A stretch of DNA of 16,161 bases from Candidatus Bathyarchaeota archaeon (GCA_963768425.1 CAVYHV010000004.1:1-16161), one strand, 5' to 3'. Shown: positions 184 to 12,469, counted from the first letter of the stretch. Notes: generated from the sequence alone by a model not told the origin. Numbers and translations: made by a program.

Positions 184-231
184 TTTATTTCACCCAAATT
201 TTCTATTACCATTTAGACGCTTGTCGATGTT

Positions 232-270
232 TTATGAAATATTATGAACAAATCACAACTTCATTTATAT
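232..270 (+). promoter_or_regulatory. operator-like motif plus TATA box (copy 1)
   Basis: TTATGA-N4-TTATGA-N5-TCACAA (232-258), then 5 nt, then TTTATA (264-269). Confidence 0.7.
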
Positions 271-312
271 TTACCTGAGCAAATAACTAAACTACATAAA
301 AACGGTGAAAAT

Positions 313-411
313 ATGTTTGGACTGTTAGATTTAGCTTCAATCGGTGTAATCTTTGCTTCATTTGTAGTCATAATGTACAACATCAGATTAGAACTCAAAA
401 TCAAAGTGTAA
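313..411 (+). CDS. 32-aa single-TM micropeptide MFGLLDLASIGVIFASFVVIMYNIRLELKIKV
   Basis: GGTGA SD at 304-308, ATG at 313, TAA at 409-411, TATA upstream. Paralog at 9975..10079 differs by synonymous and conservative changes. Confidence 0.8.
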   Translation: MFGLLDLASIGVIFASFVVIMYNIRLELKIKV

Positions 412-459
412 CATAAGAAACACATTTTTGTGTAACTTGAATCAACGAAGGAGAAAAAT

Positions 460-648
460 ATGGAATTCAAAAATATACACGAAGCATTGAAATATATAAG
501 TCGCCAATCAAAAGCCTACCCGAGTGAAATAGACTATTATTCGTCGGAAGAATACAAAAAAATTTATCCTGAGCTTTGTCGTGTAAATCGCTTGCTGCAA
601 GCTGCATATAATGTTCATCATGAAGGTTGCAGCGTGCCCTTGCGCTAA
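460..648 (+). CDS. 62-aa hypothetical protein
   Basis: AAGGAG SD just upstream of the ATG, same strand as the micropeptide and followed by a hairpin. No recognised family. Confidence 0.5.
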   Translation: MEFKNIHEALKYISRQSKAYPSEIDYYSSEEYKKIYPELCRVNRLLQAAYNVHHEGCSVPLR

Positions 649-668
649 GCTGTTAACGAACAGCTTTC
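647..668 (+). terminator. hairpin at the end of the 460..648 ORF
   Basis: Perfect 8-bp inverted repeat AAGCTGTT-AACG-AACAGCTT (647-666) with only a short T tail. Confidence 0.3.
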
Positions 669-917
669 TAACCGATTGCTTTAAAGAGAAAGGCGAAATA
701 GTAACATTAAATGCGCTACTCTCATTACACTGATTTGAAAGAACCGATGAACTGGAAGATGAAAAGCATTCCCTTGAAAGATTTTCTGAAAGACATAATA
801 TCGACAAGACAGCGTCTAAGAATGCAGCAAAGCCGCCGACATATTCGCTTTTACATGCAAAGCCCATCGCCAAGAAACTACTTAAGGATTTAAGGGGACT
901 GAGCATTAGTCATTAGT

Positions 918-3716
918 GTGGTTGGCGGGGTTTATTTGGAAAAAGCTGCTTCTTTGCAAATTTACGAAGTCTTCGACGACCTAGCGACATCACCCAATGG
1001 TTTGACAAGCGAAGAGGCAAAAATTCGCCTAGCTAAAAATGGCTACAACCAACTTTCCGAAAAAAGACAATTACCATTCATTCATAAATTTTTTAGAAAC
1101 CTTCGAGATCTATTCGGCATTTTATTGCTTGTTGCAAGCGTCTTATCTTACATTAGCGGCAGTCCAGAACTTGCCCTAATCATACTCGCAGTTGTTTTTG
1201 TAAACATTTTTGTAAGCATGTTCCAAGAGTCTCGTGCAGAAAAGGCGATGGCGACTCTGAGAAGCTGGATGCCTGAGTTTGCAAAAGTAATTCGAGACGG
1301 AGAACTCAAAAAAATCTCAGTCAGAGAAATTGTTCCCGGCGACATTATATTTCTTGACGAAGGCGACCGTGTACCGGCGGACGCACGCTTATTTGAGACT
1401 TTTGACTTGTGGACCAATAACGTCCCCTTGACAGGCGAGTCCGAACCGCAGCCCCGTGTCGCTGAATCGGTACAAGTCGTAGAGAAAGCCTACATGTACG
1501 CACCTAACCTCGTGTTCATGAGCACTAGCGTAGCGAAAGGCCAGGGAAAAGCCGTTGTCTACTCAACCGGCATGGACACCCAGTTTGGAAAAATCGCTAA
1601 TCTAACCCAAACAATCCATGAAGAGGAAAGCCCGCTTCAGAAGGAAATCGCTTTAACAGCAAAGTATGACTTCATAATTGCTCTCGGCGTTGGCGCAACT
1701 TTTTTTGCCGCTAGTTTTCTGTTTCTGCACGCAACTTTGGCTACAAGCATTTTCTTCATGATAGGTGTAATGGTTGCTTGTGTTCCTGAAGGATTACAAG
1801 TCACCGTGTCAAGCGCCTTAGCCATCAACGTTCTGAAGATGGTCAAGCAGAATGTTTTAGTAAAACGGTTATCAGCCGTGCAAACGTTGGGCAGCGTTAC
1901 TGTAATCTGTACCGATAAGACAGGTACGATAACAAAAGGCGAAATGACTGTAAACAAACTATGGGTTTACAACTACATTGTGGACGTTTCCGGCTTAGGC
2001 TATACGCCTGAAGGCGATTTCACAACAAATGGTCAGCCATTGCAGGAGGGGCAAACAGGTTCACTGGAGAAACTTATAGAGATTGCCGCACTCTGCAACG
2101 GAGCGAAGTTGGATCCACCTTCGGATAGAAACAAGAATTGGAGTGTGATAGGTGATCCTACTGACGGGGCTTTGCTTGTTGCGGCACTTAAGTCGAATGT
2201 AAATGTCCAGAATGCTCTGGATAAGAAACCGATTGTACATCTTTTGCCGTTCAGTTTTGAGCGGAAACGTATGAGTACCGTGCATAAATTGAACGACGAT
2301 TTCTATATTTATACGAAAGGTGCTCCCAGAAACATCTTAGACATATGCAACAGACTGCTTGTGGGCGGCGAAGTTAAAGGCTTAGACGAAGAAAACATGT
2401 TGCTTATTGAATCAAGGATTCGCGAGTTTGCCGATCAAGGCTTGAGAGTTATTGCTGTAGCATATAAGGTGATACCCAAAAACCAATATGACGAAGACGA
2501 AGCAGAGAAAGACCTAATTTTTGTCGGTTTAACTGCAATGCGTGATCCCCCGAGAGTGGAGGTTAAAGACGCTGTTTTGGAGGCAAAACAAGCAGGAGTG
2601 AAAACCGTCATAATTACAGGTGACTACGGACCAACTGCTCAAGCTATTGCTCAAGAAGTTGCAATTGCCTCGAGGGACTGTTGCCAGGCTATTCGGGGCG
2701 TAGACTTGGAAGATTTAAGTGACCAAGCAATCATAGATGAAGTTCGCAAAGGCAACGTGATTTTTGCTCGTGTTTCACCTGAACAGAAACTTCGTATAGT
2801 TACAGTGCTCAAGAAGAGCGGAGAAATCGTTGCAGTAACTGGTGACGGAGCAAACGATGCGCCTTCGCTTAAGGAAGCTGACATCGGCGTTGCGATGGGC
2901 GCTTCAGGCACAGACGTTGCTCGTGAAGCCGCTGACATAGTTTTGCTAAATGATAGCTTTGCATCCATTGTTAAAGCCATTGAATCAGGACGAGCTATTT
3001 ACGAAAACATTCGTAAGTTTATTGTTTATGTGTTTTCGCACAACTGGGCTGAACTGATTCCTTTCATACTTTACGCGGTGTTAGGTATTCCTTTGCCGTT
3101 GCTTGTGCCGCAAGTTTTAGCCATTGACCTTGCCATTGACGTTATTCCTTCTCTGGCTTTAAGTCGTGAACCGCCTGAAGCAGGAATTATGCAGGAACCC
3201 CCAAGAAGCATCAAGGAGAGACTGTTCACCCGTAAGGTGCTACTCCGTTCAGTATTCATCGGGGTCATCATTGCCACAGGAGCTATGATTGGGTGTCTTA
3301 ACGCTTGGGCTGCGGGTGGATGGCACTTTGGAATGGCATTAACAAGTACAAGTTCATTTTACACTAGCGGAGTTTACGCCAAAGGTGTAACTATGACTTT
3401 TGCTGGCATAGTGGTCGCTCAAGCAGGCAACGTCTTGGCATGTCGAACCAGCAAGCAATCAATCTTCAAAACAAGCCTGAAAACAAACAAGTGGATACTC
3501 TTTGGCATCGCTGCACAACTCGGAATCCTCTCAATACTCATTTATGTTCCATTTATGCAACACGTCTTCACAACAACGGCTCTCTCTCTAAGCAACTGGG
3601 CATTTCTAGTGTCTTTGGCGATTATCGTTGTTTTCGCAGAGGAAATCAGAAAGTTCTTCAGCCGCAAATTCACTAAAACCAGTACTGAAGCACTAAAACT
3701 ACACGACCACACTTAA
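918..3716 (+). CDS. P2-type cation-transporting ATPase, Na,K/H,K-ATPase (P2C)-like; start may be TTG at 936
   Basis: Motifs LTGES, VPEGL, ICTDKTGT, KGAP, DPPR, TGD and TGDGANDAPSLKEADIGVAMG. TM5 SHNWAE, TM6 IDLAID, TM8 QAGNVLACRT. Intact 932-aa ORF. Confidence 0.95.
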   Translation: MVGGVYLEKAASLQIYEVFDDLATSPNGLTSEEAKIRLAKNGYNQLSEKRQLPFIHKFFRNLRDLFGILLLVASVLSYISGSPELALIILAVVFVNIFVSMFQESRAEKAMATLRSWMPEFAKVIRDGELKKISVREIVPGDIIFLDEGDRVPADARLFETFDLWTNNVPLTGESEPQPRVAESVQVVEKAYMYAPNLVFMSTSVAKGQGKAVVYSTGMDTQFGKIANLTQTIHEEESPLQKEIALTAKYDFIIALGVGATFFAASFLFLHATLATSIFFMIGVMVACVPEGLQVTVSSALAINVLKMVKQNVLVKRLSAVQTLGSVTVICTDKTGTITKGEMTVNKLWVYNYIVDVSGLGYTPEGDFTTNGQPLQEGQTGSLEKLIEIAALCNGAKLDPPSDRNKNWSVIGDPTDGALLVAALKSNVNVQNALDKKPIVHLLPFSFERKRMSTVHKLNDDFYIYTKGAPRNILDICNRLLVGGEVKGLDEENMLLIESRIREFADQGLRVIAVAYKVIPKNQYDEDEAEKDLIFVGLTAMRDPPRVEVKDAVLEAKQAGVKTVIITGDYGPTAQAIAQEVAIASRDCCQAIRGVDLEDLSDQAIIDEVRKGNVIFARVSPEQKLRIVTVLKKSGEIVAVTGDGANDAPSLKEADIGVAMGASGTDVAREAADIVLLNDSFASIVKAIESGRAIYENIRKFIVYVFSHNWAELIPFILYAVLGIPLPLLVPQVLAIDLAIDVIPSLALSREPPEAGIMQEPPRSIKERLFTRKVLLRSVFIGVIIATGAMIGCLNAWAAGGWHFGMALTSTSSFYTSGVYAKGVTMTFAGIVVAQAGNVLACRTSKQSIFKTSLKTNKWILFGIAAQLGILSILIYVPFMQHVFTTTALSLSNWAFLVSLAIIVVFAEEIRKFFSRKFTKTSTEALKLHDHT

Positions 3717-4009
3717 ACAGATACTTATTGCCCCGCGGTCCAGCCAACCAGCGCTTGATTGCAGATTTACATAACTCCCAGTTGCAGAAGGTGTCCTTTC
3801 ACGCGTTCAAACCAGAAAGCAGTTGAACAAACAATGCTTGGTTCAACCCTGACATCATTCGGATTGAACAAAGAATTTATCAAGATAGAGGGAGGTTTTT
3901 TGTTTTATTTCTATATTTAAATCGCAATCGATCGGTAACCACACAGTTTTTAGCTGTGCTTTCAGTTTTTCCAAGTTTTCCTGTAAGATAGTTCAAATAT
4001 TGCTGGAAA

Positions 4010-4051
4010 GTGTGAACAAATCACAACCAGTCATAATCAACTTTATATAAA
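4010..4051 (+). promoter_or_regulatory. operator-like motif plus TATA box upstream of the RAM-kdp operon (copy 2)
   Basis: TGTGA-ACAAA-TCACA palindrome (4011-4025), extra TCATAA half-site at 4031-4036, then 5 nt, then TTTATATAAA at 4042. Confidence 0.7.
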
Positions 4052-4096
4052 AGTGTGTATTTGACTAAGTGAAAGGGAGAAAAGAGAGGCCAAAAA

Positions 4097-4198
4097 TTGC
4101 AGTGTCTTGAAGTTAATATTCCTCATAGCAAAGATAGAGGAATTTCTGATTTGGCTTTCTTTAACAACATGAGAAAGAACCTCGAAGAGGTTCCATAG
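4097..4198 (+). CDS. possible 33-aa leader ORF MQCLEVNIPHSKDRGISDLAFFNNMRKNLEEVP
   Basis: GAGG SD 7 nt before a TTG, located just after the copy-2 promoter. Hydrophilic and not KdpF-like. Confidence 0.2.
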   Translation: MQCLEVNIPHSKDRGISDLAFFNNMRKNLEEVP

Positions 4199-4339
4199 TA
4201 AACTCCTTTTCGGACTCGCCTGATTATTATGTCGAACTTAAACGTTGTTGATATGTTTTGCATTTCGATTGAAAGTCGTTTCATATCCCGCTTGCCAGTT
4301 CCCAGTCTTGAATTCACTTGCAAATTGGAGAAGAAATAA

Positions 4340-4612
4340 ATGAGTCGTTTCTTAGCGTCAGTCAACATCTTCGCTGAAAACTCCCAAATAGATCAAGTTG
4401 TAGCAGCTTTGCGAAAGCTTGAGAACATTGAAGAAGTCTACGAAGTCGCAGGCGAATACGACATCGTCACGCTCGTAAGCACTTCAACGCTTGAAGAATT
4501 TCGTGACACCCTGCAGAAGAAAATTATGAAAATCAAAGGAGTAAAAAGCACCATAAGCACTATTATACTGAAACCCCATAAAGGTCATAGGTGTCAAAAA
4601 AACCACAATTAA
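4340..4612 (+). CDS. stand-alone Lrp/AsnC ligand-binding (RAM) domain protein
   Basis: VYEVAGEYDIV and IKGVKSTIS RAM signatures, no N-terminal HTH, GGAG SD. Confidence 0.9.
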   Translation: MSRFLASVNIFAENSQIDQVVAALRKLENIEEVYEVAGEYDIVTLVSTSTLEEFRDTLQKKIMKIKGVKSTISTIILKPHKGHRCQKNHN

Positions 4613-4675
4613 ATCAACCGTTATTTGAGGTAGGAGCCATAGTGAGCACAAATGCTATTTGGAGTTTCGGATTAA

Positions 4676-6337
4676 TTGATCGATGCAGTTCAAGCGCTGT
4701 CAATCATCATTATACTTGGAGTAACCATACTCTTAGCATGGCTAATAGCACCTTACATCACAGGGGTTTTTAAAAGAAAATCAAGCCGTCTAGACAAGAT
4801 CTTCAATCCCATCGAAAAATTCATTTACAGAATCACCGGTGTAAACACAGAGCAGTCGATGGGTTGGAAACAGTATTTCCTCGCTGGCTTACTTTTAAAC
4901 ATCGTTATGATGGTTATTGGCTTTCTAATCCTTGTTTTCCAAGGAAGCCTGCCCCTCAACCCAATGGGTTTTGGCGGCATAAAGCCAGATCTCGCCTTCA
5001 TGCAAGTAGTCTCATTCACAACAAACACAGACCTGCAGCACTACAACGGCGAAGTAGCCTTCTCTTATCTAAGCCAAATAAGTGTTTTACAGTGGCTTCA
5101 ATTCACCTCCGCCATAACAGGTCTATGCATGGGTATCGCTTTCATACGGGGATTGGTTGACGGCGCGAAAGACATGGGTAACTTCTATGTTGACTTCACC
5201 AGATCCATAACAAGGATTTTCTTGCCACTGACGATTATCGCTGCAATAATATTTCTTGCCTTAGGCGTACCTCAAACACTCAATGGCTATACAACAGTAA
5301 AAACCATAGAAGGCGCTGCTCAAACAATTCTAGTTGGGCCAGTGGCTTCTCTTGACTCAATAATGCAAATAGGCACCAATGGCGGCGGATTTTATGGAGC
5401 AAACGCTGCATACCCATTTATGAATCCATCGCCAGCCAGCAACATTCTTATGATTTCTCTTATGCTTCTGCTTCCCACGGCATTAATTTTTGTTTTCGGT
5501 CAAATGATCGGCAAAAAAACTGAGTCAAGGCCGCTTTTATGGGGCGCTTACATCCTGTTTGGAGTAAACTTGGCTTTGGCGTTCATTCCTGCCCTGCCTT
5601 TGGTGGCTCCAGGCATAGAAGTCAGATTCGGCGGCTTCATGTCCAGCTTCTACACCGTTACAACAACCGTCGCAACAACAGGCTCATTGAACTCAGCGCT
5701 TACTGGGAAACCATCCTCTAACATTACTTTCTGGATTCTTGGGCATGTTTATTCAGTCAATCCCAGGCGGAAAAGGCGTGGGCATGATGTACATGGTGAT
5801 GTACATTATAATAACAGTCTTCATCGTCGGACTTGATGTCGGGAAGAACTCCTGAATACTTAGGCATGAAAATCACAGGGCGCGACGTTAAACTTGTGAT
5901 GGTTGCTTTCCTTATTCATCCACTAATCATACTTATTCCAACAGTGATAGCATACGCCTCAGGTGCTGTTTCTGCAATAGGCATGGGTGGAAACTCTGTC
6001 GGTTACACCCAGGTTCTCTGGGAATTTACCAGCGCCGCAGCCAACAACGGCTCAGACTTCTTAGGCTGCCTCAGCCAACACGCCGTTCTTCAACATAGCA
6101 ACCGCCATAGTCATTCTCATTGGACGATATGCTCCAATTGTAATATTGTTGGCGCTTTCAGGATCAATGATTGGCAGAAAACGCGGCGGCACAACCTCGG
6201 GTCTAAAAACTGACACGCTGATATTCACTATAGTCTTGATTGCCAGCATCATCATACTTGTAGTGCTTACATTCTTCCCGTTCCTAGCAATTGGACCAAT
6301 AGCATCATTCTTTAAAGGGTTGGTGAACGGCTTTTGA
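4676..6337 (+). CDS. kdpA: K+-transporting ATPase subunit KdpA (three +1 frameshifts at ~5705-5710, ~5833 and ~6066)
   Basis: Filter/signature motifs TNTDLQHY, GTNGGGF, EVRFG, GRTPEYLG and ANNGSDF. Shifted frames give IPGGKGVG...VFIVGL and NTPFFNIATAIVILIGRY. C-terminus LTFFPFLAIGPI. Confidence 0.93.
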
Positions 6338-8514
6338 CCACTGAAAAACCTGTAAATTCAAAGACAAACAAAGAATCAGCGCCCACTGGAATTCGAACGG
6401 TTTTCTCTAGGAAAGTGCTAGTTGACTCTAGTAGTTCGTTTAAATCCCAAATCGTTACTTAGAAACCCAGTAATGTTGATCGTTGAAATCACCTTCTTTA
6501 TCGTTGCAGCAATGGCTATAGTTCCACAAGCATTCGTTCCAGTAGCTAGCCCCAGCTTACAAGTTTTCTACATTGAAGTCGCAGTCATCCTCCTCATCAC
6601 AGTCTGGTTTAGCACGCTCTCCGATGCACTTGCAGAGCAACAAGCAAAAAGCACTGCTGGAAGCTTGCGGAAACTGGAAACAGAAGTGTCCAGCAAAAAA
6701 ATTATCACGGAAGGCTGGACCCGAAACATAGTGACCGTGAAATCAACTGAGCTTAGAAAAGACGATCTTGTCCTCATTGAAGCAGGCGACATTGTTCCCT
6801 TAGACGCTGATGTAATTGAGGGAATCGCGATGGTTGACGAGTCACTTGTCACAGGCGAATCAGCCCCCGTCAGAAAGGCGCCTGGCGACTCTCTAATCGG
6901 CGGTTCTCGTCTTGCAAGCGATACCTTGACAGCGAAAATTACAACAAACCCAGGCGAAACCTTCATCGACCAAATGATCAAGATGGTCGAATCCTCCAAA
7001 CGACCAAAGACTCCAAACGAAGTTGCAATAACCATGGTGCTGATCGGCTTAACCGCCATATTCACCATAATCATACTTGCATTGCTAGGCACCTCAGTAA
7101 TGCTTGGTCTTGGAGCAGACTTGTCAGTGTTGATCGCATTATACGTTTGTCTTCTTCCTACAACCATAGGTGCCTTGCTGCCTGCCATCGGCCTCTCAGG
7201 GATAACTCGTCTTTACAAAAACAAAATCGTCGCAAAATCAGGCAGAGCAATAGAAACCGCGGGAGACGCAGACGTGGTGCTCTTAGACAAAACAGGTACA
7301 ATTACCGTGGGCAACCGGCAAGCCATAGAGTTCATCGCGTTTGAAGCATGTACAGAAGAAGACGTCGGCGAAGCAGCATTCCTGTCTTCTTGGCATGATG
7401 ATACCCCTGAAGGACGAAGCATACTGAGACTTGCCTACGAAAAAGGGTTCGTGCCAAAAGAACTAAACTCACTTGCAACCTCAGAAGTAGATGCATTCTC
7501 AGCAGTCACTCGAACAAGCGGGGTAAAAATAACTCACTTAGGTCTCACTTTGCCAAAAGGTGACAAGTCAGGAAGAGAGCAGAAAGCGCATTCGAAGAAA
7601 AGCCTCTATAGCAGTGGAAGAAACCGAGGCTGACATACTTGAATCCGAAATCGACATTGTAAAAGGCGCTCCTGAATCAATCAAAGACTTAGTCATCAAC
7701 TGTTCCCAAGAACTATGATCTAGTTGTGGAAGGGATTTCTGCAGCGGGAGAAACTCCAATAGCCGTCATGCGCAACGGAGTAGCCATCGGAATAATCAGA
7801 CTTAAAGACGTGCTTAAAGTGGGCATAAAAGAAAAGATTCAAGCCCTCAAAGTCATGGGAATCCGACCCGTCATGATTACAGGAGACCAGCCGCTAACCG
7901 CAAAAAGCATAGCTTCCGAGGTTGGAATCGACGAGTACGTTGCACAAGCTAAACCTGAAGACAAATATAAGATAGCTAAAAGAGAACAGGCTGAAAACAG
8001 AATCGTAGCCATGATCGGCGACGGAACCAACGATGCGCCAGCACTTTCCGCTGCAGACGTTGGGTTAGCAATGAACTCAGGCACTGAAGCAGCAAAAGAA
8101 GCCGCCAACATGGTGGATTTAGAATCAAACCCTGCAAAAATAATCGACGTTGTCATGTTGGGAAAGCAACTGCTGATGACCAGAGGTGCAGTTACGGCTT
8201 TCAGCATCGCCAACGACATGTCAAAATACTTCGCAATCATGCCTGTTATCTTTGCCGTCGCCCTTCCACAACTGAGTAGCCTCAACATCTTACAGTTGGG
8301 TCTTAAGAGTGCTGTGTTGTCAGCTCTGATCTTTAACGCAATAATTATTCCGCTTCTGATTCCGCTCGCTATGCGCGGCATCGCTTTCAAACCTACAAGC
8401 ACAATGACACTGTTCCTCAAGAACACTTTAATTTATGGAGTGGGCGGAGTTATCGTGCCATTCATCGGAATCAAACTAATAGACATACTGCTCGTAGGAG
8501 TATTTCATATTTAG
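6334..8514 (+). CDS. kdpB: K+-transporting ATPase subunit KdpB (three +1 frameshifts at ~6430, ~7545-7600 and ~7695)
   Basis: TTG at 6334 overlaps the kdpA TGA and has a GGTGA SD at 6322. Motifs [32 protein letters not shown] (intermediate frame), [15 protein letters not shown] and ANDMSKYF. Confidence 0.93.
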
Positions 8515-8525
8515 GAAGGAAAAGT

Positions 8526-8993
8526 ATGACTGAACAAAAAGAAAAATGGAACTTCAAACCAATCATTGGATTAGCACTGGTTTCGCTGTTGATTTGCGGG
8601 CTATTTTACCCGTTCTTAATCACTGGGATTGGCCAAGTTTTCTTTCCCAACCAAGCCAACGGCGACGTTGTCCAACTCAACGGGCAAGCAGTCGGATCAA
8701 ACCTTATAGCTCAAAACTTCACTTTGCCTATTTTTTTCCACACAAGAAACGAGACCGCGCTTCGCCTTCAGCATCAGGCGTTGACCCAGACATCACACTT
8801 GCAAGATGCTTATTCCCAGATTCCAGGAATAAGTAACGCAACAGGCATTTCTGCGGCTTCGTTAACAGCAATTGTTAATCAGAATCAACAGGGAACATTT
8901 TGGATTTTCGGCAGTCCATACATAAATGTTTTGAGAGTTAATTTGCTGCTGATAAATAATTATCCGTCAGTATACAGTAATTTTACTGGCTAA
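8526..8993 (+). CDS. kdpC: K+-transporting ATPase subunit KdpC (two compensating frameshifts at ~8757 and ~8797)
   Basis: LFYP..TGIGQVFFP.QANG, GSNLIAQ.F and INVLRVNL motifs. The SASGVDPDI motif lies in the alternative frame (ORF 8546..8836). Confidence 0.9.
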   Translation: MTEQKEKWNFKPIIGLALVSLLICGLFYPFLITGIGQVFFPNQANGDVVQLNGQAVGSNLIAQNFTLPIFFHTRNETALRLQHQALTQTSHLQDAYSQIPGISNATGISAASLTAIVNQNQQGTFWIFGSPYINVLRVNLLLINNYPSVYSNFTG

Positions 8994-9130
8994 TTGCGTT
9001 AGGTGCTATGTTGAATTGATGGTTTCTCGGAGATAGTATGCCAGCCATGTCAATTTAACAAATTTCCAACTTTACACTATATTTCTGTACGTTTGTCGGG
9101 GTAATGATGAATATTGTTGCGTATGAGCGA

Positions 9131-9146
9131 GAAAAGGTATAAATAT
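9131..9146 (+). promoter_or_regulatory. BRE-TATA of the second RAM gene
   Basis: GAAAAGGTATAAATAT about 35 nt upstream of ATG 9180. Confidence 0.55.
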
Positions 9147-9179
9147 ATGGAACTCCTGTTCATAAAGGAAATGACCCAT

Positions 9180-9467
9180 ATGCCAAGACTATTAGCATTC
9201 GTAGACATATTTGTAGAATCCCCAGAAATGGACAACGTCTTAGTTTCACTTGCCGAATTAGAACATCTTGAAGAATTCTACGAAGTTACTGGCGAATTTG
9301 ACATCGTAACCTTGGTGTCAGCCGCGGACATAGAAGAATTCCGAGATGTCCTCAAAAACAAAATCATGAAAATAAAAGGCGTAAAAAGCACTGTTAGCTC
9401 CATCGTTCTTAAAGCTCACAAAGGACCAAAATGTCCAGACGAAAGTGGTCAAGCTCCCCCAGGATAG
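9180..9467 (+). CDS. stand-alone Lrp/AsnC RAM-domain protein, close paralog of 4340..4612
   Basis: Start moved to ATG 9180 (MPRLLAFVDIF aligns with MSRFLASVNIF). Shares YEV.GE.DIVTLVS, EEFRD.L..KIMKIKGVKST and HKG..C with the paralog. Confidence 0.9.
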   Translation: MPRLLAFVDIFVESPEMDNVLVSLAELEHLEEFYEVTGEFDIVTLVSAADIEEFRDVLKNKIMKIKGVKSTVSSIVLKAHKGPKCPDESGQAPPG

Positions 9468-9569
9468 CTGGAACGAAAGCGTCAAATTTTGTTATCAAGC
9501 ATTTTTGCAAAAAATAGGCTTTTAAATTTAAAAAGAAAAAATTGGGTTTTGGTGTCTTCTGATTTGCTT

Positions 9570-9806
9570 CTACATTGGTGATAGTACGATGGATGTTTCT
9601 GTTCGGATGACGTTGGGGTCTTTTTCGATTATTTTGTAAACAACTTGGTTAATTTCTTCGAGTGAAGGTGCTTCCAATATTACTATTGCGTCGTAGCGGC
9701 CGAATATGGCGTCTGCGGTGATTGTTTCTTTGACTTTTTCTTTAAATCTGTGGACGACTTCCAGTGAAGTGCCGGGTTTTGTGCTTAGGAGGATGTAGGC
9801 TTTCAT
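9570..9806 (-). CDS. stand-alone Lrp/AsnC RAM-domain protein (divergent third copy)
   Basis: MKAYILL, FGRYDAIV and VIRTETSIV signatures, no HTH. Confidence 0.88.
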   Translation of the reverse strand: MKAYILLSTKPGTSLEVVHRFKEKVKETITADAIFGRYDAIVILEAPSLEEINQVVYKIIEKDPNVIRTETSIVLSPM

Positions 9807-9850
9807 TTTGTTTTTCCTTCTATTTTGTTCGATGTTTAATGGTTGTTATT

Positions 9851-9865
9851 CCATATAAATTTTCT
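9851..9865 (-). promoter_or_regulatory. BRE-TATA of the minus-strand RAM gene
   Basis: Reverse strand reads AGAAAATTTATATGG about 45 nt upstream of the ATG at 9806. Confidence 0.5.
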
Positions 9866-9892
9866 GTTGGGATTTAGACGGTTGTTTAGTGT

Positions 9893-9931
9893 TTATGAAA
9901 AATTATGAACAAATCACAACCATATTTATAT
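9893..9931 (+). promoter_or_regulatory. operator-like motif plus TATA box (copy 3)
   Basis: TTATGA-N4-TTATGA-N5-TCACAA (9893-9919), then 5 nt, then TTTATA (9925-9930). Confidence 0.7.
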
Positions 9932-9974
9932 GCAGCTGGGCAAGTATGTACTTATAAAATGAAATGGTGAAAAT

Positions 9975-10079
9975 ATGTTTGGAATAATTGATATAGCCTC
10001 AATAACAGCAATCTTCGCTTCGATAGCTGTAGTAGTTTACAACATCAGATTAGAACTCAGGACACAACCCCTCAATTAA
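9975..10079 (+). CDS. 34-aa single-TM micropeptide MFGIIDIASITAIFASIAVVVYNIRLELRTQPLN
   Basis: GGTGA SD, ATG at 9975, TAA at 10077-10079. Identical to the 313..411 peptide at 19 of the first 28 residues. Confidence 0.8.
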   Translation: MFGIIDIASITAIFASIAVVVYNIRLELRTQPLN

Positions 10080-10339
10080 GAATACCCCACTTTCAACAAT
10101 CTTGGGTTTTAACCCTTATCATTATCTAACTTTCTTAAGTTAATTGACTTTTCAAGTATGATGATTCATCTTGAGTGTTTCAACACTTGTTTTGCAGAAT
10201 CTTCGATTAAACAACTTTCGGTGGGTCCCTTGCGAAAACAACTATCATTGCCAGCGACAACCAAAACATCCAACCTGCAAACGCAAATTGGGCGTTGTAA
10301 ACTTGTTATATTTCTGGACTGAAATTGAAGAGTTATGCC

Positions 10340-11277
10340 TTATTTTATAGCCCGCTGACACCCAGGACAAAAAGTTGCCGCGTCTAAAACGGGGGTGTTG
10401 CAGAATTTGCAAGCGTTCTTTGGGAAAGATATGAACCCCTTTTTTACCGCTCCATAGTTGCCGCCTGTTGCTTCTGCCTCTTTTCTTTTTTTGCGTGTGC
10501 GGTCGATTCTTCGGCCGAAAAAGATTGCGGTTTCGAAGACCACCACGAAGGGCGCCATGATGATTAAGCCTGTGACCGGGGTGGGATCGGGCCAAATATC
10601 CAAAATATCATCAGTAGAGCTATGTAAGCGAAGATTTTGTTGCGTCCACTCACATATTTAACGGGGAGAACTCCAACCTGGATAAGCATAACGACGAAGA
10701 TGGGGATGGTGTAGAAGACACCGCATAAAACAAATATCGTGTAGATCCAGTTGTAGAAATCCTTGATGAAGATGTACGGTGTGGCGCCTCCTTGGATAGT
10801 GAAGTAAATTAAGATTCGAAATGAAATTGGGATAACAACAAAGAAAGCCATAACTACACCTAAAATCAGCAGCCCAATGAAGGAGCCCAAGTAAATCCCT
10901 AGAACCTTCTTCTCGTTGTCGTATAATGCGGGTTTGATGAAGGCAACAACTTCATAAAATATCACGGGGGAAGCCAACAAGATCCCAACAATCACAGACA
11001 GGTAAGCCATAGCAAACACTGTGTCCGCCATCCCGCCTGCAATCAAAGTTGCCTGCTTAGGGAGAAACTCATCTCTTAACTGCACCATTAGAGGCGCAAT
11101 CATGGGTTGATAGGTTCCAACTGGGTTTGTGATCCCGGCCAAAGTAGTAGGAATCCATCCGACCCCGATGCCGATGATTAAAGCCACAAGAACAACTTTT
11201 AAGCGGCGGACTAGCTCATCGATGTGCCCCCAGAAACTCATGACCCAACCCTTAAGTGACTCAGGTTCAGAACTCAT
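10340..11277 (-). CDS. tatC: twin-arginine translocase subunit TatC with C-terminal zinc ribbon (one frameshift at ~10590)
   Basis: MSFWGHIDELVRRL and PVIFYEVVAFIKPALY.NEK motifs. Restoring one base in the G run at 10589-10591 gives FGPDPTPVTGLIIMAPFVVVFE followed by a CKFC...CPGC tail. Confidence 0.9.
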
Positions 11278-11500
11278 AAAACTTCAAACCCGCAAGAAAA
11301 CACAGAATTTCCTCTCTTGACTCCGACAACAGATAAAGTGTTAACCATCCTCTTCCTACAAGCATGTCTCTCATTGGCTGATATTAAAATCCATAAGCAG
11401 TCAAGCGCTTAAAACAATTTGTTGTAGTATAGCAACAATCACGCTGCAGATTTTTTTGGCGCAGAATTTTTCTGTTTGTGTTTTGGTTTGCTTTTTTGTG

Positions 11501-11513
11501 GAAAAGCTTAAAT
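11501..11513 (+). promoter_or_regulatory. BRE-TATA upstream of the repeat array and AbrB-like gene
   Basis: GAAAAGCTTAAAT. A similar GAAAAAGCTTAAG precedes the 12470 gene at 12411. Confidence 0.5.
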
Positions 11514-11530
11514 CATCTGTAGGTTGAGTC

Positions 11531-11620
11531 ATACTCAGACACTATTAGACACTCTTAGACAAAATTAGACGCTATCAGACACTCTTAGATACTTTCAGAC
11601 AATATCAGACAATCTTAAAG
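11531..11620 (+). repeat. tandem array of eight (plus one degenerate) 10-bp direct repeats, core TYAGAC
   Basis: ATACTCAGAC ACTATTAGAC ACTCTTAGAC AAAATTAGAC GCTATCAGAC ACTCTTAGAT ACTTTCAGAC AATATCAGAC (AATCTTAAAG). Confidence 0.95.
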
Positions 11621-11636
11621 TTAAGGAAGAATATAC

Positions 11637-11915
11637 ATGCCGTTAACACGAAAAGTAACCTTCAGAGGGATACTTCAGAAAAGTGAAAGAATACAAATTC
11701 CAAAATTGATCATAAACGAATTCAAGTTGGAGCCTTCCCAAGTTTTGAAAGTTGGCTTTACCTTGCCAGACAAGTTTAAAGGCTGGCAGTTCTTTTACGC
11801 AAAAATGGAAAAAGCCGGACGAATTTACATCCAAAAGGCAACATTATCAGTCTGGGAAGAAGAAAGAGCAAGCCTGCCCGGTTGCATCGTCGAAGTGACG
11901 CTTGAACCCACCTGA
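11637..11915 (+). CDS. putative DNA-binding protein with two tandem AbrB/SpoVT/MraZ-like swapped-hairpin repeats
   Basis: Repeat 1 FRGILQKSERIQIPK...LEPSQVLKV and repeat 2 FYAKMEKAGRIYIQK...LPGCIVEV both resemble the AbrB 'GRI.IPK...G..v.V' pattern. AAGGA SD. Confidence 0.7.
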   Translation: MPLTRKVTFRGILQKSERIQIPKLIINEFKLEPSQVLKVGFTLPDKFKGWQFFYAKMEKAGRIYIQKATLSVWEEERASLPGCIVEVTLEPT

Positions 11916-12066
11916 CCATAAGCAATTCAAGATTCACTTTCATCATCCCCTCCACTGCTTCAAAATGACGTTTCAACGTTTTCTTTTTAAAGCGTTTAAC
12001 GCATAAGCACCCACCCGCGTGAAAGTCTATGAAAAAGAAATTATGTTGCCTGGGGGCTTAGCAAGC

Positions 12067-12384
12067 ATGGGAAAAACTGTGCCTTCTTACCGAATGGCTC
12101 TGGAAGACGAAATTGGCAGCTGGAAGAACTTTCGAAACGGCCTGCCAAACGAAGAAGAAATGCAGACTTTTGATGTACTTATGGATATGTGCAGAAATCT
12201 TGCTTCAGCGAGCAGCTGCGCATGCAAACCGATAATCTTTGAACCTATGGCGATCAGTATACTTATAGCTCAACAGAAAAAGATCAAGCAGCTCGAAAAA
12301 AAATTAAACGAACTGTTAATGCAGAGGAGCGGAGGGCAAACAAGAAGCAATGAACCTGTTGTTCGCGGCAATTTTGAACCTTAA
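12067..12384 (+). CDS. small alpha-helical archaeal protein (MGKTVPSYR...W..FR..L...FD.L), resembling the PolB2-associated arCOG07300-type family
   Basis: Start moved to ATG 12067 on the MG[KR]T.P[ST][YF]R N-terminus. Family assignment is from recalled similarity only. Confidence 0.65.
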   Translation: MGKTVPSYRMALEDEIGSWKNFRNGLPNEEEMQTFDVLMDMCRNLASASSCACKPIIFEPMAISILIAQQKKIKQLEKKLNELLMQRSGGQTRSNEPVVRGNFEP

Positions 12385-12469
12385 ATGAGAGGCTGTTAAT
12401 CTCGTACAGTGAAAAAGCTTAAGAACTAAAACAAAAAATAGTAAAAATCCTTCTCGGGAGCTGCAGATT

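Follow-up and report, generated by a model that had tools for sequence, protein, structure and literature searches.

Single-helix membrane micropeptides that share a promoter box with one type of kdp operon in Bathyarchaeia

Introduction

KdpF (Pfam PF09604) is a 29-amino-acid (aa) subunit of bacterial KdpFABC, and the small membrane proteins MgtS, MgtR and MgtU of enterobacteria raise or lower the stability of two P-type Mg2+ ATPases, MgtA and MgtB; the Mgt peptides are single helices of about 30 aa, answer to the same ion-responsive regulator as the P-type ATPase, act post-translationally and may be encoded apart from it. FXYD, phospholamban and sarcolipin are eukaryotic single-helix regulators of P2-type ATPases, and the bacterial type I toxins include peptides of the Hok, Ldr, Ibs and TisB classes. 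To our knowledge, transporter-tuning small membrane proteins have been described from bacteria and eukaryotes, with almost none in archaea and none in Bathyarchaeia, a group that is abundant and uncultured. In this study, we investigated two short open reading frames (ORFs), here called peptide genes 1 and 2, that flank a K+ pump operon (kdpABC) in DNA of a Candidatus Bathyarchaeota archaeon (GCA_963768425.1, CAVYHV010000004.1:1-16161). The window, as we call the whole stretch analysed, is the complete 16,161-base contig C4 of a 2.96-Mb genome in 33 contigs that is 91% complete; KdpA of close relatives carries the name 'Candidatus Bathyarchaeia archaeon' at NCBI. The first-pass annotation had regarded the two ORFs as paralogous single-helix micropeptides of a possibly undescribed archaeal family that regulates pumps. 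We observed that the peptides recur across one genus and have a promoter box in common with the kdp operon, and on the sequence evidence a pump-accessory role is plausible.

Results

Peptide gene 1 (313..411, plus strand) encodes a predicted single-helix membrane micropeptide of 32 aa, MFGLLDLASIGVIFASFVVIMYNIRLELKIKV, and belongs to the type followed by a small gene, orf62. Peptide gene 2 (9975..10079, plus strand) encodes 34 aa, MFGIIDIASITAIFASIAVVVYNIRLELRTQPLN, and belongs to the type paired with RAM3, a gene for a stand-alone RAM domain. Both ORFs were read directly in the sequence as first described, together with their TATA boxes TTTATAT (264-270 and 9925-9931) and GGTGA ribosome-binding sites (304-308 and 9966-9970), all on the plus strand; the TATA box of gene 1 lies 43-49 nucleotides (nt) 5' of the ATG and is kept across a 20-copy alignment. 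The likeness of the pair was equally easy to reproduce, with 19 of the first 28 residues identical, five synonymous differences at A8, I10, F14, S16 and V19, and YNIRLEL the same in both peptides. The DNA of the two copies matches at E 4.8e-31, far beyond chance; contig C28 holds a third copy, which scores E 7.2e-39 and differs from peptide 2 in one residue. A fourth, more divergent copy stands on C28 divergently upstream of a second kdp operon, and the genome holds four peptide genes in total, all intact. The DNA likeness of genes 1 and 2 reaches about 130 nt 5' of the ATG (185-285 against 9846-9946, 77%; the ORF itself 77-78%), and this conserved upstream block is a common promoter and operator lying outside the ORF. 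A peptide identical to peptide 1, with the same neighbours, is present in the close relative L057. The description of both genes as unannotated stood for peptide 1, whose exact sequence is not in public protein collections, and fell for peptide 2, whose exact sequence is already deposited (NCBI, JGI, ENA) and whose close variants are named 'hypothetical protein'.

For the coding analysis, 20 full-length members of 31-38 aa from 12 genomes were gathered by a profile of the copies in same-genus genomes and aligned. The claimed frame is open in all 20, any of the other five frames in at most 7; the ATG start is kept in 20 of 20, with GGTG just 5' of it in 18 and AGTGA in the remaining 2. Entropy at codon positions 1, 2 and 3 is 0.48, 0.31 and 0.92 (14 type-A copies), the third positions being two to three times more variable than the others, and the pooled ratio of nonsynonymous to synonymous polymorphism (pN/pS) is 0.34. 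The ratio of nonsynonymous to synonymous substitution rates (dN/dS) lies between 0.06 and 0.68 in the 15 pairs with estimable dS, one further pair being saturated, and the amino-acid replacements are conservative while synonymous sites diverge to saturation. The pN/pS value, the three-base periodicity and dN/dS all indicate purifying selection on the peptide, in agreement with the first-pass annotation. When 120 genomes of the genus were searched (E up to 0.01), 48 matched, and 47 with 85 copies were kept after G063, a weak match within a 483-aa frame, was dropped from the genus counts. None of the 85 copies contains an internal stop and two are truncated or frameshifted; homologous loci keep the frame and the start codon. 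Because only the claimed frame is open, the ATG and ribosome-binding site are kept, the substitutions are three-periodic and internal stops are lacking, these ORFs almost certainly encode protein and form a real, translated gene family. A competing ORF antisense to peptide 1 (261..470, minus strand) was set aside, its frame being open in only 4 of the 20 copies.

The family is narrowly distributed. Paralogs number one to five per genome, and a class-wide search of 301 genomes in 107 genera found members only in the own genus and in one of six genomes of one sister genus. A representative library of 1.84 billion proteins yielded 37 clusters at E up to 0.001, all of 30-69 aa, and the members looked up were unnamed or called 'hypothetical protein'. 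The proposal of an undescribed archaeal micropeptide family is thereby upheld, as the family is lineage-restricted, predicted to form a single helix and without a match to a known family.

AlphaFold2, run on a 20-row alignment, predicted a single helix over residues 2-31 with a mean predicted local distance difference test (pLDDT) score of 87. Across an alignment of 40 sequences, columns 7-22 are uncharged, position 6 is D or E in 39, and small residues prevail at positions 8/9 and 15/16. The tail carries R25 in 35 of these sequences, E27 in 39 and K or R at position 29 in all 40, and its I-R-x-E-L-K-x-K motif is the best conserved part of the peptide. Because the tail is positive, a single-pass topology with the N-terminus outside and the C-terminus inside would be expected. 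A complex predicted from an intact KdpA ortholog (alignment of 21 rows) and the peptide (40 rows) scored 0.01 against a mark of 0.32, a run without controls that gave no answer and is evidence neither way.

A box of the form TTATGAAC-N3-TCAYAA is near-invariant in all 20 aligned peptide promoters, with TTTATAT following after 4-5 nt; in the flanked 20-copy alignment it is this box, and not the ORF, that forms the most conserved block. In the window it reads TTATGAACAAATCACAAC in the promoter of peptide gene 1 (242..259, plus strand) and again at 9903-9920 in that of peptide gene 2 (9874..9970, plus strand, from TTAGACGGTTGT at 9874-9885 to the GGTGA site). The promoter of the kdp operon (4013..4049, plus strand) holds the same box as TGAACAAATCACAAC at 4013-4027, followed by the TATA element TTTATATA at 4042-4049. 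The box is thus common to peptide and kdp promoters. Of the 12 matches to its strict pattern in the 2.96-Mb genome, half belong to the promoters of the four peptide genes and of the two kdp operons (6). Among 41 fetched loci (609 kb) there are 56 matches, most directly 5' of peptide genes, and five stand 5' of RAM1-kdpA (the window, C28, G020, G003 and G013). From this pattern we infer that one regulator binds the box and co-induces the peptides with kdp, and the peptide genes are probably members of the kdp regulon.

Two further elements were noticed around the box. A palindrome-like sequence, TTAGACGCTTGTC (213..225, plus strand), lies about 17 nt 5' of the box of peptide gene 1 as a TTAGACG..GTC block present in most type-A copies, and a partly palindromic counterpart stands at 9874-9885 before peptide gene 2; it is possibly a second protein-binding site. 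On contig C6, a perfect 17-nt palindrome, TTATGAACAGTTCATAA (G000:C6:249440-249456), which is another of the 12 strict matches, represents a symmetric form of the box 5' of another stand-alone RAM-domain paralog, which suggests a dimeric regulator and a wider regulon of RAM genes. Control of the pumps by a leader peptide or upstream ORF was considered and rejected, as the RAM3-paired type has no co-directional gene downstream and the permease-linked type is divergent from kdp.

Linkage to kdp was counted from the coordinates of two genus-wide searches, one for the peptide and one for KdpA. For 55 of the 85 copies a KdpA match is no more than 8 kb away (no more than 5 kb for 54), and 45 of the 47 peptide-bearing genomes have kdpA. 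Over the 120 genomes, both are present in 45, the peptide only in 2, kdpA only in 6 and neither in 67; as the genomes are relatives, these co-occurrence counts are descriptive and overstate independence, which lessens the support they lend to a tie with kdp. The linkage to ion pumps expected by the first-pass annotation is borne out by these counts and by the common promoter box. In five of the six genomes that have kdpA only, the operon is of another layout, with two RAM genes upstream, no downstream RAM gene, no RAM3 and no box (RAM-RAM-kdpABC at loci L084-L088 in G010, G110, G118, G129 and G092; KdpA 57-60% identical to the window fragment), and therefore the peptide and the box track one kdp operon type. 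The peptide genes occur in three fixed cassettes, namely divergent from RAM3 and 3' of kdpABC; 5' of orf62, often followed by a P2-type ATPase gene; and 5' of an APC-family permease gene, divergent from kdp.

Comparison with the described systems gave partial resemblances. The archaeal peptide is like KdpF in having about 30 aa, one predicted transmembrane helix and a genetic association with kdpABC; KdpF has about 25-30 aa and one helix, and the peptides have 31-38 aa, a helix over residues 2-31 and a core at 7-22. It differs in lacking sequence or profile similarity, in its conserved acidic residue and basic amphipathic tail, and in position, since RAM1 precedes kdpA here whereas kdpF abuts kdpA in E. 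coli K-12; some copies are moreover far from kdp or in genomes without kdpA. The absence of kdpF noted in the first-pass annotation was confirmed, as neither this genome nor any of five relatives whose kdpABC is intact had a match exceeding the PF09604 cut-off, a level that 5 of 14 control genomes did exceed. The profile, PDB and hhalign comparisons agree that the family is not KdpF: none of eight peptides matched PF09604 at E up to 10, a PDB profile search with 20 members returned no KdpF chain and no meaningful match at E up to 10, and hhalign of a 40-member profile against E. coli KdpF gave a probability of 0.4% over 1 aligned column. In Pfam as a whole, at E up to 10, seven of the eight peptides hit no family and the eighth only a weak MARVEL (E 0.13); NCBIfam had no match for the two window peptides, and a protein atlas matched the peptide only to unnamed clusters, at a score of 0.78, and gave no usable result with orf62. 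A KdpF moiety fused to the N-terminus of KdpA or KdpB was also rejected, intact KdpA being 551-553 aa long and the N-terminal extension of KdpB hydrophilic.

With MgtS, MgtR and MgtU the archaeal peptides have in common a single helix of about 30 aa, a gene apart from the pump and a putative co-regulation with a P-type ATPase, but they differ in an unrelated sequence, an archaeal host and a fixed pairing with RAM3 or orf62. Like FXYD, phospholamban and sarcolipin they combine one helix with a short charged segment, and one copy here is 5' of a P2-type ATPase gene; unlike them they show no sequence match, and only 7 of the 49 copies whose neighbours were surveyed have a P2 ATPase gene at 1 kb or less. 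By analogy, the nearest functional counterparts would be KdpF, MgtS, MgtR and MgtU. In the portions of the literature reached by a full-text search, nothing was found on the peptide family or its motif, or on RAM-only proteins with potassium.

The neighbour survey covered 49 full-length copies in the 41 fetched loci, a sample purposely enriched for copies away from kdp. RAM3, divergent and within 450 nt, accompanies 19 of the 49; orf62 lies within 150 nt downstream of 18; an APC-family permease gene is downstream of 6; and 6 have none of the three. In the window, orf62 (460..648, plus strand) encodes a predicted soluble three-helix protein of 62 aa and is the fixed 3' partner of the peptide-1 type (AlphaFold2 pLDDT 87, three helices; 20 invariant columns among 15 sequences). 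It matched nothing in Pfam, NCBIfam or a PDB fold search, and its 85 public clusters, none of them below 68% identity where aligned, are unnamed or called 'hypothetical protein', apart from two misnamed entries; by these comparisons orf62 is an undescribed, lineage-restricted and strongly conserved small protein. A T5 tract in a short inverted repeat (ACAC..GTGT; 425-429) between peptide gene 1 and orf62 is possibly an archaeal termination or attenuation point inside a putative two-gene unit.

Downstream of orf62 lies an intact P2-type cation ATPase gene (918..3716, plus strand; 932 aa; Pfam Cation_ATPase_N, E1-E2_ATPase, Hydrolase and Cation_ATPase_C). Its earlier label of 'P2C-like' was not sustained, as the protein is nearly equally close to the Listeria Ca-ATPase (8.9e-149) and the Na,K-ATPase alpha subunit (8e-144) and falls below every NCBIfam subtype cut-off; judged by its sequence it is a P2-type ATPase, with no finer subtype assigned. 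RAM1 (4340..4612, plus strand) is the first gene of the kdp operon and RAM2 (9180..9467, plus strand), its paralog, the last; RAM3 (9573..9806, minus strand; 78 aa), found by tblastn and by Pfam on the C28 copy, is divergent from peptide gene 2. All three are stand-alone Lrp/AsnC ligand-binding RAM domains (PF01037 E 9.2e-16, 4e-16 and 1.4e-9, respectively) over proteins of 78-117 aa, with no helix-turn-helix or DNA-binding domain match in Pfam. The window thus reads, in order, peptide 1, orf62, P2-type ATPase, box and TATA, RAM1, kdpA, kdpB, kdpC and RAM2, all on the plus strand, then RAM3 on the minus strand, box, TATA and peptide 2 on the plus strand and tatC on the minus strand. This layout repeats in another species (L083) and also at L057 and L058. 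In all three, a divergent paralog stands about 400 nt to the left of the equivalent of the peptide at 313..411, and the first 66 bases of the window match the region upstream of the divergent fourth copy; contig C4 therefore starts inside that intergenic region, and the third, divergent paralog of the close relatives lies just past its left end.

Several observations concern the rest of the window. A 34-nt inverted repeat, 79% complementary, has its arms at 3610-3643, in the 3' end of the ATPase gene, and at 10226-10259, just 3' of peptide gene 2. An 87-aa ORF (10340-10603, minus strand) just 3' of tatC has one hydrophobic segment and a zinc-ribbon-like tail made up of two CxxC pairs. A tandem array of about nine 10-nt units (11527-11616; consensus near AGACACTCTT) lies just 5' of a 92-aa ORF (11637-11915) with no Pfam match, and similar stretches occur on contigs C8, C9, C10 and C29.

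The kdp genes of the window are fragmented. Indels were called against the intact orthologs of G013 (KdpA 553 aa, KdpB 725 aa, KdpC 154 aa). kdpA (4676..6310, plus strand) has three 1-base insertions near 5698, 5832 and 6066, with Pfam KdpA in three frames; kdpB (6422..8514, plus strand) has 1-base insertions near 6429, 7581 and 7691; and kdpC (8526..8993, plus strand; 155 aa) has an internal frame-shifted stretch (+2 at 8763, +1 at 8801). In all, nine insertions of 1-2 bases and one deletion were found over 4676-8993, and about fourteen indels in the second kdp copy on C28 (G000:C28:47000-52300). None falls in a homopolymer run, and the 2.8-kb ATPase gene, which has no indel, tatC and the RAM genes are intact. 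Fragmented kdpA occurs in about nine other genomes of the genus; because the close relative G072 has an intact kdpA, the frameshifts may stem from assembly error. They would thus mark the kdp genes as pseudogenes or else reflect a local misassembly of two copies that are 88% identical. An 8.1-kb segment is in fact present twice in the assembly at 88.5% identity (window 4338-12401 against G000:C28:52274-44218), holding RAM1-kdpABC-RAM2, RAM3, the peptide, tatC and two small ORFs, and may reflect either genuine duplication or the presence of a second strain in the bin (contamination estimate 4.75%). Between the two copies, identity is 86-89% over the kdp genes, 96.6% over RAM3, 94.1% over the promoter region shared by RAM3 and the peptide and 98.1% over the peptide ORF.

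Discussion

Our data are, we tentatively propose, best explained by a lineage-specific family of single-pass membrane micro-proteins that is wired by its promoters to one kdp operon type and acts as an accessory of transporters. A single DNA-binding regulator would turn on the peptides and the Kdp pump together, presumably when K+ is scarce. The peptide would insert with its N-terminus outside and C-terminus inside, and the helix, with its acidic D6 and a face of small residues (A8/S9, G/A15-S16), may dock on a co-regulated transporter (Kdp complex, P2 ATPase or permease) and stabilise or tune it as bacterial KdpF or MgtS do. The basic I-R-x-E-L-K-x-K tail may touch the small soluble protein encoded alongside. 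There is a role to be filled, as no canonical KdpF was found in this genome and five relatives and the KdpF role is therefore unfilled. That the peptide has a direct transporter partner is, judging from gene order and promoters, possible but still doubtful.

Several of our observations weigh against this account. The fixed closest neighbours of the peptide genes are a RAM-domain gene, orf62 or an APC permease gene rather than pumps, and in 12 of the 49 surveyed copies orf62 is the sole recognisable neighbour, for example beside ribosomal-protein genes. The peptide genes stand outside the kdp operon, with their own promoters, divergent from or downstream of it, and in contrast to KdpF several paralogs, up to five, occur per genome. 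Thirty of the 85 copies have no kdpA inside a radius of 8 kb; the peptide is found without a KdpA match in three genomes (85%, 69% and 92% complete), namely G098, G124 and the sister-genus genome G348, the last being the 92% complete one, and kdpA without the peptide in six genomes. Moreover, both kdp operons of this genome are frameshifted and its four peptide genes intact, and no part of the duplicated segment is better conserved than the RAM3-peptide module. Should the frameshifts be genuine, this module persists as kdp decays and the peptides do not depend on Kdp, which disfavours a role bound strictly to that pump. The neighbour survey and the broken kdp genes thus count against a strict KdpF-like role.

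The main rival is that the peptide works chiefly with RAM3 or orf62, as a membrane tether or co-sensor in K+ or amino-acid homeostasis, with no direct contact to a pump. We consider this rather unlikely, though it has much in its favour: 37 of the 49 surveyed copies adjoin RAM3 (19) or orf62 (18) and 7 have a pump within 1 kb, the RAM3-peptide pair persists without kdp in the sister genus and in G124, and the two genomic copies share 94-98% identity over RAM3, promoter and peptide, compared with 86-89% over kdp. The tail is the best conserved part of the peptide, and orf62 is as lineage-restricted as the peptide itself. Neighbourhood is, however, no proof of binding by itself, and the APC-permease type and three orphan copies have neither partner; we also know of no membrane partners of RAM-only proteins. 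Reliance on RAM3 or orf62 furthermore overlaps with the transporter-accessory account that we prefer and does not exclude it. A further reading, in which each paralogous peptide serves one transporter (Kdp, P2-type ATPase or APC permease) and is coupled by its basic tail to a RAM or 62-aa sensor within one operator-defined regulon, is more speculative still and appears unlikely on present evidence from sequence. If true, it would mean that the state of a cytoplasmic metabolite or of K+ is relayed to pumps through a micropeptide adaptor, and the passages available to our full-text literature search contained no description of such an arrangement of RAM sensor, micropeptide and pump.

It is improbable that the peptides are stress-induced and membrane-active, either resembling type I toxins or forming small pores, and change the membrane potential or ion leak without being subunits at all. 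They do resemble such toxins as short hydrophobic peptides of about 32 aa, often unannotated, with a single helix that holds a conserved acidic residue and a charged C-terminus, and they come in multiple paralogs, each with its own promoter and some at unrelated sites. In the 20-copy alignment no conserved antisense or flanking RNA element accompanies them, however; conservation between paralogs is lost 3' of the stop, the conserved upstream block is promoter plus operator, and the window has no Rfam match. Their tight linkage to one kdp operon type would also be unexpected for toxin loci, as would promoters that have a specific operator in common with a transporter operon.

Highly diverged, true KdpF orthologs that have moved out of the operon would share the size, the one helix and the association with kdp, and these genomes lack a canonical KdpF; nevertheless, such an origin is very improbable, since PF09604, the PDB profile search and hhalign (0.4%) all failed to match, the gene is not 5' of kdpA in the operon, there are multiple paralogs and some copies occur in genomes without kdpA. 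Finally, that the ORFs are chance, untranslated frames in a repeated regulatory DNA element is scarcely credible, for although conservation in the promoter portion of the repeat equals or exceeds that in the ORF, the three-base substitution periodicity with pN/pS 0.34, the claimed frame alone open in 20 of 20 and free of stops in 85 copies, the ATG and ribosome site kept at fixed spacing and the conservative replacements despite saturated synonymous sites all speak for translation.

Conclusions

The narrow range of the family, one genus and one genome of a sister genus, with no cultured host, will make testing slow. The peptides illustrate how much conserved coding capacity below about 35 codons still lacks a name, peptide 1 being itself missing from protein collections. 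In summary, the peptide, the promoter box and the RAM-domain genes offer three handles on how these archaea, without KdpD/KdpE or KdpF, regulate their uptake of K+.

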